From Escherichia coli (lineage in GTDB: Bacteria > Pseudomonadota > Gammaproteobacteria > Enterobacterales > Enterobacteriaceae): a stretch of DNA of 64,000 bases. Position numbers: made by a program. Location of the stretch: assembly GCF_044647545.1 (NCBI RefSeq), contig NZ_CP172818.1; one strand, given 5' to 3'. Of this stretch, positions 10,212-13,200 are shown piece by piece; positions within the stretch are counted from its first letter, which is position 1; every line of letters begins with the position of its first letter.

Positions 10212-13200
10212 TTACTGGCTCATTCTGGCTTTCGGCGTTTTCATGCAAAATGGCCTGTTCGGCTTGTTTGTTCAGTACCAGCAGGCTGATGCGACGGTTG
10301 ACGGCATCATCAGGTCCGCGATCGCTTAAGCGCATCGTTGCCGCCATGCCGACGACACGTAACACTTTGCCGCCATTCAACCCGCCAACCATCAGTTCGC
10401 GGCGGGATGCATTGGCACGATCGGCAGAAAGCTCCCAGTTGCTGTAACCTTTCTCACCGCTGGCGTAGGGAAAATCATCGGTATGACCCGAGAGGCTAAT
10501 TCGGTTGGGAATACCGTTCAGTACGGGCGCGATGGCGCGCAGAATGTCGCGCATATAGGGTTCGACGTCGGCACTGCCAGTTCTAAACATCGGGCGATTC
10601 TGGCTATCGATGATCTGAATACGTAGACCTTCCTGGACCAGATCGATTTTGAGATGTGGACGTAACGCCCGCAGTTTCGGATCGGATTCAATCAACTGGT
10701 CGAGATCGCCACGCAATTTCCGCAATCGACTTTGCTCCATGCGTTTTTTCAGCTCTTCGATGTTCGGCTGCTTATTCACTTCCCCCTGACTTTGGGTGTA
10801 ATCATCACCCCCACCGGGAATTGGGCTTTCACTATTAGAAATGCGATCGCCGCCCGTAACCGCAGTCGCCAGTGGAGTCCGGAAGTACTCCGCAATCTGA
10901 ATCAGCTCTTTTGGGCTGGAGATGGAGATTAGCCACATCACCAGAAAAAAGGCCATCATCGCGGTCATAAAGTCGGCATAAGCAATCTTCCACGATCCAT
11001 GTGCTGCCCCGTGGCTTTTGGCTTTGCGTCGTTTGACGACAATAATCGGATGCGCTTGATTCTTCATGCTTCCTCGGTTGTCGTCTGTTGTTGCGGATTT
11101 TTCACCGCACGCACATGCTCTTCCAGTTCAATAAACGACGGACGTTCGCTGGAATAGAGCGTTTTGCGACCAAACTCAACGGCGATAGGCGGTGCGTAAC
11201 CGTTCAGATTAGATAGCAGTGTGACTTTGACGCACTGCATCATTTTGCTGGTTTCGGCGCTTTTCTGACGTAAAACACTCGCTAATGGGGAAATAAATCC
11301 GTAAGCCAATAAAATGCCGAGGAAAGTCCCCACCATCGCATGTGCGATAAGCGCCCCCAGCTCGGCGGCAGGACGATCGGCTGAACCTAACGCGTGAACG
11401 ACCCCCATTACAGCCGCGACAATACCAAACGCCGGAAGTGAGTCCCCGACCAACGCCAGACTGTTCGCCGGGACTTCTGCCTCGCTTTCGTGCGTCTCAA
11501 TCTCTTCATCCATCAGAGCTTCGATTTCGAAGGTGTTCATGTGACCGCTGATAATCAGGCGCAGATAATCGACGATAAATTCAAGCATGACGCTATCCGC
11601 AAGGATGCGTGGGTAGCTGGCGAAGATCTCGCTCTCACGGGGATTTTCAATATCGCGTTCCAGCGAAAACATCCCCATCTGCCGCGATTTCGCCATCAAC
11701 CGATAAAGCAGAGCCAGCAGATCCATATACATTGCTTTGGTGTATTTGGAGCGACGAAACAGCAACGGCAGCGCCTTCAGCGTGCCTTTAATCGCTTTGC
11801 CATTATTGCCGACGATAAACGACCCAATCCCTGCACCGGCAATAATCACCAGTTCAGCGGGTTGATAGAGTGCTCCAAGGCTTCCACCGGTCATCAAATA
11901 ACCGCCGAAAACTGTACCGAGAACAACCAGGTAACCTAATAAGATAAGCACGACATCATCCTTCCACTGTTGACCATGACAGGATGTTCAGTCGTCAGGC
12001 GTTAACGCGCGATTGGGGCAAAAAAAAGCAGCGGTACGTCGTTACCGCTGCTGGAATGTTGCGCCACACCGTATAAGTTAAACAGCCTGTACTCTCTGTT
12101 CATCCAGCAGTTGTGGGATAATATCGGCAGGATTCTGGGAAAGTTTACGTCTTTTTACTGCCCGGGATGGCGGCTGACATAAGCTGCAGGCAAAGCTGCC
12201 AACAGGCTGGTGAGCGTGGGTAATAAAATTGCCGCCGCAGCAGTTGCAGCTGGAAAGTTGCAGTAATCCACTTTCAACAAACCGTACCAATGTCCAGGCA
12301 CGGGTTAATGCCAGCAGCGGTCCGTCTTCTGCTTGCGGGCACTGTTCAAGGTATAAACGGTAGGCTTTGATCACCGCATCGACGCCATTACACAAGCCGG
12401 TTTTCAGTAAAAACTGCCATGCGTTACAGAACATTGAAGCATGAACGTTTTGTTCCCAGGTCATAAACCAGTCGGTTGAGAATGGCAGCATGCCTTTCGG
12501 CGGTGGGCTTCCGCGTAGTTCTTTATAGAGTTTTATCAGGCGTCCGCGACTTAACTGTGTTTCGCTTTCCAGCATCTGCAAACGAGCGCCCAGGGTGATC
12601 AATTCCATTGCCAGCTGAATATCCCGCGCTTCCTGAACAATGCTTTTTTCACTCATGATCAGGCCCTTTTCTTGCGCAGCGCTTCTTCAGGCTGATTAAC
12701 ATCATTCAGCAAGCGTGTTGAGAGCATGATGCCGGTATGAATTTGCTGGAGATCGTCAACGCGGGAATCTTGCGTCAATTGAGTAATCGTCTGGTGGCTG
12801 TCAAAACGGAAGTGACAAACCAGTTGATTGGTTTCTGCCAGCTTAACCATTTGCGGAAGAGTCAGTGCCGCTAACGTTGTCGCCATTTCTTCATTTATGC
12901 CGAGACGAAACATAGCGGACGCTTTGTCCTGAACAATCAGACGCTGTGCAAGTAGTAAATATGACAAGTTGATGTCATAAATGTGTTTCAGCAACTCGGA
13001 GGTATGCATTATTCCCACCCAGAATAACCAACTTTATTTTTATGCGGTCTCACCGCACCCCGTGATGTCGCCGGGAAGCCCCGGTAAAAAATAATTAGCA
13101 TTAGAATAGTTGCGATAAGCTGCAATAAGCAGAACCACCTTTTTGGTTTAATAAGTCCTTACAAATAGAAAGGGGTCTTTACACTTATCTAAGATTTTTC

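Follow-up and report, generated by a model that had tools for sequence, protein, structure and literature searches.

The motR-motA module in an Escherichia coli chromosome: a conserved sigma28 promoter within flhC, a natural minority motR allele and a candidate anti-terminator helix

Transcripts that are initiated by sigma28 within the end of flhC have to cross a terminator before they reach motA, which raises the question of what these transcripts become. We analyzed this locus in a window of 64,000 nt of Escherichia coli DNA (contig NZ_CP172818.1), to which all coordinates refer unless stated otherwise. The window is E. coli chromosome: 801 nt surrounding the site matched several complete genomes at 100% identity, and the region was found in 5,376 of 5,426 complete E. 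coli genomes. Collinearity with strain FDAARGOS_497 was lost beyond about 20 kb. On the minus strand, the genes follow each other in the order flhD, flhC, motA, motB, and cheA. The features of the locus are compiled in Table 1.

Table 1. Features of the flhC-motA region of the window, in the direction of transcription
Feature	Position	Strand	Remark
flhD	13009..12659	minus	
flhC, class-1 master regulator gene, with the promoter and MotR nt 1-37 inside	12078..12656	minus	
sigma28 -35 element TAAACTTT	12140..12147	minus	exact motif; flhC codons Val-Lys-Arg-Arg-Lys-Leu
sigma28 -10 element GCCGATAT	12121..12128	minus	exact motif; overlaps FlhC Ala-Asp codons GCC GAT
motR, 95-nt MotR sRNA	12020..12114	minus	starts at the A (+1, 12114) and ends with the last U (12020)
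Candidate anti-terminator 5' strand, MotR nt 5-12 CUGCUGGA	12103..12110	minus	flhC Leu-Leu-Asp codons; hypothesis only
flhC stop codon	12080..12078	minus	
MotR nt 40: U in window, G in K-12	12075	minus	alignment
MotR nt 49: U in window, A in K-12	12066	minus	alignment
MotR seed region nt 43-54 ACGGUGUGGCGC	12061..12072	minus	complementary to rpsJ GCGCUUCACUGU
Candidate anti-terminator 3' strand, MotR nt 60-67 UCCAGCAG	12048..12055	minus	hypothesis only
Intrinsic terminator, common to MotR and (by position) flhDC	12020..12052	minus	10-bp stem + U8
motA 5' leader remainder, only in read-through transcripts	11952..12019	minus	sequence
motA, gene 1 of the class-3 motAB-cheAW operon, same promoter	11064..11951	minus	GTG start at 11951

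The long sigma28 consensus is TAAAGTTT-N11-GCCGATAA, with strict spacing and a transcription start about 7 nt past the -10 element. The motif within flhC matched this consensus at 14 of 16 positions with an 11-nt spacer, and the +1 was the seventh base past its -10 element. In the shorter form, the first-pass annotation had reported a TAAA-N15 motif at 12121-12147 inside flhC, and indeed the exact sigma28 motif TAAACTTTCCCAGAATCCTGCCGATAT, which reads TAAA-N15-GCCGATAT, was found at 12147..12121 on the minus strand, within the last 70 nt of the gene. The pattern TAAA-N15-GCCGATAW had three matches in the 64-kb window, compared to none in 100 dinucleotide-preserving shuffles. Of the other two copies, one precedes tar (7561..7535, minus) and one precedes fliD (37980..38006, plus), both of which are class-3 flagellar operons. 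According to Fitzgerald et al. (bioRxiv 10.1101/188474), the flhC-internal FliA promoter is active, it is bound by FliA in both E. coli MG1655 and S. Typhimurium, it is the most conserved FliA promoter, and its -10 element constrains Ala177-Asp178 of FlhC.

The product of this promoter has been characterized in K-12. The sRNA MotR derives from motA's 5' UTR, and its transcription starts at the flhC-internal promoter (Melamed et al. 2023, eLife 12:RP87151, PMC10578931). In Northern blots that compared the wild type with a fliA mutant, one prominent and sigma28-dependent MotR band of ~95 nt was observed, whereas longer bands were attributed to read-through of the MotR terminator; the same promoter drives motAB-cheAW, and MotR is enriched by co-immunoprecipitation with Hfq (PMC10578931). 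The MotR cloning primer SM001 begins with ACAACTGCTGG, and the MotR* mutation is described as 'TGC at positions 6-8' (PMC10578931). Together, the start of the primer and the numbering of MotR* fixed the +1 at window position 12114. The RefSeq record of K-12 MG1655 contains the ncRNA motR (b4828) at 1977208..1977302, a gene of 95 nt that shares sequence with the 3' end of flhC, and the alignment of this gene to window positions 12114..12020 revealed 93 identical bases out of 95 and no gaps. Nucleotides 1-37 of MotR coincide with the last part of flhC, stop codon included.

The terminator that the first-pass annotation had placed at 12020-12052, between flhC and motA, was verified as a 10-bp hairpin followed by eight U residues. 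The stem (12052..12027) has 10 pairs, six of which are G-C, and a loop of 6 nt, and it is followed by Ts down to 12020, so that MotR has the stem-loop and U tract that serve as intrinsic terminator and as Hfq-type 3' module. The hairpin lies 26 nt beyond the stop codon of flhC, and no second terminator-like site was found between this codon and motA. Because it directly follows flhC and no other terminator precedes motA, it probably also ends the flhDC transcripts.

With these ends, the earlier claims could be compared with the published K-12 data. The proposal that termination yields an RNA of roughly 95 nt, and read-through the motAB-cheAW mRNA, agrees with the 95-nt motR gene of MG1655, the ~95-nt Northern band and the read-through reported by Melamed et al., and the suggested fit with the sigma28-dependent sRNA MotR was borne out by the annotation of b4828 at the equivalent place. 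Two details needed adjustment. The 5' end had been expected near 12113, which was the right location and yet one base off the annotated and published +1 at 12114. Likewise, the promoter had been described as lying about 95 nt upstream of the terminator; the number was correct, but the wording was loose, as 95 nt are counted from the +1 to the last U. A scan of window positions 10500-14000 against Rfam 15 (E<=1) gave no match, and Rfam has no family for MotR. A motR feature was also absent from the PGAP annotation of a strain that is identical to the window across flhC, indicating that motR is annotated only in the curated K-12 record.

Together, these results make it nearly certain that the locus is the E. 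coli motR-motA module, which is already known and which gives rise either to the sRNA MotR or to a read-through mRNA. Judging from the sequence, this strain would express MotR as K-12 does. According to this model, sigma28 (FliA) polymerase would recognise TAAACTTT-N11-GCCGATAT in the end of flhC, initiate at the A at 12114, and after 95 nt meet a strong intrinsic terminator (10-bp stem, U8). Transcripts that stop at the hairpin would constitute the Hfq-binding sRNA MotR, those that pass it would constitute the motAB-cheAW mRNA, and flhDC transcripts would meet the same hairpin as their terminator. In K-12, MotR pairs via nt 43-54 with rpsJ and fliC and raises the number of flagella. The first-pass annotation had also named the terminator an attenuator; regulated read-through, which this term implies, is a hypothesis in the literature as well.

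A scan with FlhC was performed on one genome per species, and of roughly 588 FlhC-linked loci 80 Enterobacterales loci were kept, with Escherichia, Yersinia, Serratia, and Dickeya among the genera covered. In nearly all 80 loci the sigma28 motif had 11-12 of 12 matches and a 15-nt spacer, and its end lay 43 nt ahead of the last base of the flhC stop codon; the exceptions were one locus with a 14-nt spacer (L068) and one with an anomalous position (L015). In the 65 unique sequences from Enterobacteriaceae and Erwiniaceae, the promoter is followed by the hairpin CAGCAGCGG...CCGCUGC and a U tract, and the length of the RNA from the +1 to the U tract was 91-96 nt, with one exception of 115 nt (L066). 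The latter was left out of an alignment that comprised 65 sequences, i.e. the window, K-12, and 63 orthologues. In this alignment, the terminator helix was paired in 97.6% of the cells, and the same helix was predicted by RNAalifold. Double changes occurred at three apical pairs, and the lower seven pairs hardly varied in sequence. Pectobacteriaceae had, at the same distance, a hairpin that is unrelated and whose U tract is weaker, and no canonical intrinsic terminator was found in the loci of Serratia, Yersinia, and Dickeya. Hence, the promoter is universal in the set of 80 loci, whereas the MotR-type terminator is characteristic of two families. Nucleotides 43-54, the seed, were not conserved outside Enterobacteriaceae.

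The synonymous sites of flhC revealed how far the constraint extends. At conserved residues of upstream flhC, two to six synonymous codons were in use among 78 loci, and two invariant Leu positions used five and six codons, respectively. In contrast, the -35 codons GTA AAA AGA CGT AAA CTT were represented by essentially one codon each, and the -10 codons GCC GAT were invariant (78 loci each). The first six transcribed codons, CAA CTG CTG GAT GAA CAG (MotR +2 to +19), also used essentially one codon each, and both Leu positions in this segment were encoded by CTG in 77 of 77 loci. This held true also in families that lack the MotR-type terminator. The promoter part of this freeze reproduces the observation of Fitzgerald et al., and the part from +2 to +19 is a modest extension of the known constraint. 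The transcribed segment thus provides evidence, beyond the literature, for nucleotide-level selection across Enterobacterales. Nucleotides 1-22 were also considered as a second seed directed against the 5' region of fliC in the window, and this candidate was discarded, because 60% of the shuffled sequences paired at least as well; on long inputs, unconstrained RNAduplex yielded meaningless duplexes with long loops.

Could the motif in flhC be a chance match within a coding sequence that has no promoter function? Most intragenic FliA sites of E. coli are not conserved and give rise only to unstable RNAs, according to bioRxiv 10.1101/188474. However, the pattern did not occur in any of the 100 shuffles, its position is near-constant and its synonymous sites are frozen in 78-80 loci, and ChIP-seq, lacZ fusion, and TSS data have been published for exactly this site (Melamed et al.; Fitzgerald et al.). 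A chance match is therefore already refuted by published data, and we assign it virtually no probability. A different objection concerns the RNA rather than the promoter, namely that the promoter serves only motAB-cheAW and that the 95-nt RNA is a functionless by-product of running into the flhDC terminator. The distribution across species agrees with such a view insofar as the promoter is kept in all 80 loci, while Serratia, Yersinia, and Dickeya lack a canonical terminator and Pectobacteriaceae have a weaker hairpin, unrelated to it, in its place, and the seed is not conserved outside Enterobacteriaceae. Against it stand the experiments with K-12, in which MotR binds Hfq and is found in RIL-seq chimeras together with rpsJ and fliC, and a chromosomal seed mutation of 3 nt lowers the number of flagella and motility (Melamed et al.). 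In addition, the length of 91-96 nt and the near-invariant base of the hairpin in two families exceed the needs of a plain terminator. A functionless by-product thus seems very unlikely, and the reading of MotR as a functional sRNA is preferred.

A further alternative, which does not question the function of MotR, concerns the choice between the sRNA and the mRNA. Melamed et al. (eLife 12:RP87151) speculate that read-through depends on S10-NusB. Nucleotides 5-12 of MotR are a perfect 8-nt complement of nt 60-67, of which nt 63-67 form the base of the 5' arm of the terminator and nt 60-62 lie outside of the terminator stem. How many of the sigma28 transcripts read through might be set by an RNA switch, in which nt 5-12 would capture nt 60-67 as soon as these emerge, sequester the base of the 5' arm, and form a helix that the terminator must displace. 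Several observations are consistent with this. The alternative helix was paired in 99.4% of the cells of the 65 orthologues, and U60, C61, and C62 showed at least 90% conservation next to a spacer that varies, although they are not part of the terminator stem. One double change, from G11-C61 to A11-U61, was present in two sequences (L054 and L076). In the nascent RNA, before the 3' arm emerges, the helix was part of the predicted minimum free energy structure of 63 of 65 sequences, with a mean pair probability of 0.94, and the full-length RNA was predicted to favour the terminator by only about 3 kcal/mol (-28.6 versus -25.5 kcal/mol). Lastly, MotR*, in which nt 6-8 are changed from UGC to GAG, has been reported to be 'more abundant' (Melamed et al.), and in silico this mutation destroyed the helix (-22.3 to -11.9 kcal/mol). 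Because the insert of pZE-MotR runs past the terminator to the start of motA, more termination would yield more of the 95-nt RNA. However, a higher abundance of MotR* could equally reflect the stability of the RNA. The helix was found post hoc, a perfect 8-nt complement occurred in 1.2% of the shuffled sequences, and 6.9% of them matched the energy gain. The high pairing frequency stems almost wholly from invariance (five pairs are invariant), and the sole covariation concerns one pair in two related sequences. Moreover, the 5' strand is coding and remains frozen also where a family has no partner strand, five of the eight bases of the 3' strand are constrained by the terminator itself, and E. 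albertii has a central mismatch in the helix. In Pectobacteriaceae only a weak and imperfect pairing of nt 9-13 with an arm of the hairpin was found, and in Serratia, Yersinia, and Dickeya no alternative pairing beyond 6-mers was found; the families with a different hairpin or with none thus yield no independent support for the helix. A literature search for an anti-terminator in motR RNA or for Term-seq data retrieved nothing beyond the eLife paper, and no publication proposing this helix came up. Taken together, we regard an RNA switch as a tentative reading that is unlikely, though clearly less so than a functionless by-product.

If such a helix forms, the freeze of the first 19 nt of MotR may in part reflect an anti-terminator of nt 5-12 and nt 60-67 that would decide co-transcriptionally between MotR and motAB-cheAW and would also explain the abundance of MotR*; we consider this possible, but doubtful. 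More speculatively still, termination at the hairpin would differ in efficiency between flhDC transcripts, which are translated, and sigma28 transcripts, which are not, as ribosomes on flhC would interfere with the 5' strand of the helix. The helix model for the ratio of MotR to mRNA has the advantage of being concrete and cheaply testable. A leader peptide was also considered. As the length of the spacer varies by non-multiples of 3 among the orthologues, no conserved leader ORF was found in MotR, and a small ORF starting with the AUG at nt 12-14 was rejected for the same reason and because it is not preceded by a Shine-Dalgarno motif.

The MotR gene of the window differs from that of K-12 by two substitutions, G to U at nt 40 and A to U at nt 49, and the latter falls into the seed. 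The published M1 seed mutation changes GUG to CAC at MotR nt 46-48, and the compensatory rpsJ-M1 mutation changes CAC to GUG within GCGCUUCACUGU (supplement of Melamed et al.). These two sequences place the validated duplex on MotR nt 43-54, with A49 opposite a U. Nucleotide 49 adjoins the M1 triplet; U49 generates a central U-U mismatch in the duplex with rpsJ, and the GUG triplet is retained. The duplex energies predicted with rpsJ were -22.4 kcal/mol for K-12 MotR, -18.0 kcal/mol for the window allele, and -11.2 kcal/mol for M1, the strain's own rpsJ gene being located outside the window. The combination of M1 with rpsJ-M1 was predicted to yield -22.5 kcal/mol, which recovers the published compensation and thereby confirms the assignment of the rpsJ site. 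Regulation of rpsJ by the window allele may, on the basis of these predictions, be weaker than that by the K-12 allele. For a candidate duplex with fliC at +25..+41, -17.4 kcal/mol was predicted for the K-12 allele and -10.2 kcal/mol for the window allele; no fliC mutant template is listed among the published ones, and this prediction carries no weight in the reading given here. As assembled, fliC, another published target of MotR, is frameshifted in the window.

Among the 5,376 complete E. coli genomes with the region, 2,897 had exactly the K-12 motR sequence and 566 exactly that of the window. The window thus carries a natural minority allele of motR (U40, U49). The heptamer GGUGUGG, as in the window, also occurs in other genera of Enterobacteriaceae. 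The A49 of the K-12 seed is accordingly one of several natural alleles, and the regulation of rpsJ by MotR may differ between lineages of E. coli and, in other genera, may be weak or even lacking. Overall, a single stretch of 130 nt encodes the C-terminus of FlhC, a promoter for the last tier of the flagellar cascade, a trans-acting sRNA, and a terminator common to two transcription units, a dense packing of information that is already published.

MotR has parallels in sRNAs that arise by termination close to the promoter while read-through yields the mRNA, such as StxS from the late promoter of Shiga toxin (PMC7547250), and in classical leader attenuators such as the trp leader. In these systems, a leader terminator decides between two outcomes of a single promoter, and the short RNA has its effect in trans. 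Read-through at the trp leader is driven by translation of a leader peptide. Read-through beyond StxS is driven by a phage antiterminator protein (PMC7547250), whereas S10-NusB has been proposed in the literature for MotR, and an RNA helix is proposed here. UhpU, a sigma28-dependent sRNA within uhpT (Melamed et al.), shares with MotR a promoter that is embedded in a coding sequence and gives rise to an Hfq-binding sRNA of the flagellar regulon. However, UhpU represents the 3' UTR of its host gene, ends at the terminator of this gene, and has no operon downstream, while MotR constitutes the 5' leader of the operon that follows it and overlaps an unrelated gene upstream at that gene's 3' end. 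The locus in the window is equivalent to K-12 MotR (b4828; Melamed et al. 2023, eLife 12:RP87151) in position, promoter, +1, terminator, and the length of 95 nt. The promoter is identical to the motA promoter in flhC of Fitzgerald et al. (2014; bioRxiv 10.1101/188474), whose constraint on the Ala-Asp codons was reproduced here, and, compared to the accessible part of that work, the synonymous freeze observed here also spans the -35 codons and the first 19 transcribed nucleotides.

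The synonymous sites of the six flhC codons that follow the transcription start of MotR, the sigma28-dependent small RNA whose 5' part overlaps the 3' end of flhC, were found to be frozen in 78 loci, at these positions of the window and at the equivalent ones in the compared Enterobacterales loci (L002-L081). The frozen codons were found even in families that lack the MotR-type terminator between the flhC stop and motA. Because the freeze extends to these families, the initial transcribed region is, judging from sequence, evidently constrained by something besides coding and the known promoter elements. 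The positions of this segment and of the other features are compiled in the table.

Features in and around the flagellar genes of the window, with one K-12 annotation
Feature	Position	Strand	Remarks
Six flhC codons just past the transcription start	window 12096-12113		MotR +2 to +19; synonymous sites frozen
motR allele differences	window 12066; window 12075		MotR nt 49; MotR nt 40
Extra segment	window 13307-13479		173 nt; some 300 nt ahead of the flhD start
Exact sigma28 motif	window 7535-7561	minus	cheW-tar spacer, 32 nt ahead of the tar start
Exact sigma28 motif	window 37980-38006	plus	44 nt ahead of the fliD start
fliC, flagellin gene, broken	window ~36138-37784	minus	ORFs of 241 and 134 aa
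AsflhD, antisense RNA overlapping the flhD 5' end	L001 (MG1655 locus) 2677-2896		K-12 annotation

Two of the relative loci deviated from the common arrangement. For Enterobacter cloacae DSM 26481 (L068), the sigma28 spacer in the promoter region near 2010-2036 comprised 14 nt, not 15, and the FlhC match ended at residue 173; a one-base deletion appears both to have frameshifted flhC and to have mis-spaced the motA promoter. For Enterobacter sp. Ag1 (L015), the script set the flhC stop ahead of the promoter motif by 527 nt and gave a gap of 695 nt to motA. Despite this scripted placement, all 192 FlhC residues were matched by tblastn, and the anomaly may represent a premature stop or an artefact of the script.

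The placement of the two further exact sigma28 motifs in the window fits that expected of class-3 operon promoters.

The extra segment upstream of flhD had the lowest G content in the window (5 G in its 173 nt, plus strand), and a blastn search against 5,426 complete E. coli genomes yielded no match to it. It was missing from one strain with 100% identical flanks, and its junction is the one that is occupied by IS1H in MG1655. Likeness to IS1 was confined to the last approximately 70 nt, which resemble a degraded IS1 end with G-to-A changes. The antisense RNA AsflhD of MG1655 corresponds by position to roughly window 12990-13210 on the plus strand.

The flagellin gene fliC is a published target of MotR. 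In the window it is frameshifted as assembled, because it differs from the intact 548-aa FDAARGOS_497 allele by 17 mismatches and 7 indels across 1.65 kb; either fliC is a pseudogene here or the assembly is in error.

The exact motR allele of the window, a natural minority allele, was present in 566 of 5,376 genomes and the K-12 allele in 2,897. The U49 of the window allele is mismatched within the validated duplex with rpsJ. The same nucleotide is common to the window and other genera, and, because of this distribution, the A49 of K-12 looks derived.
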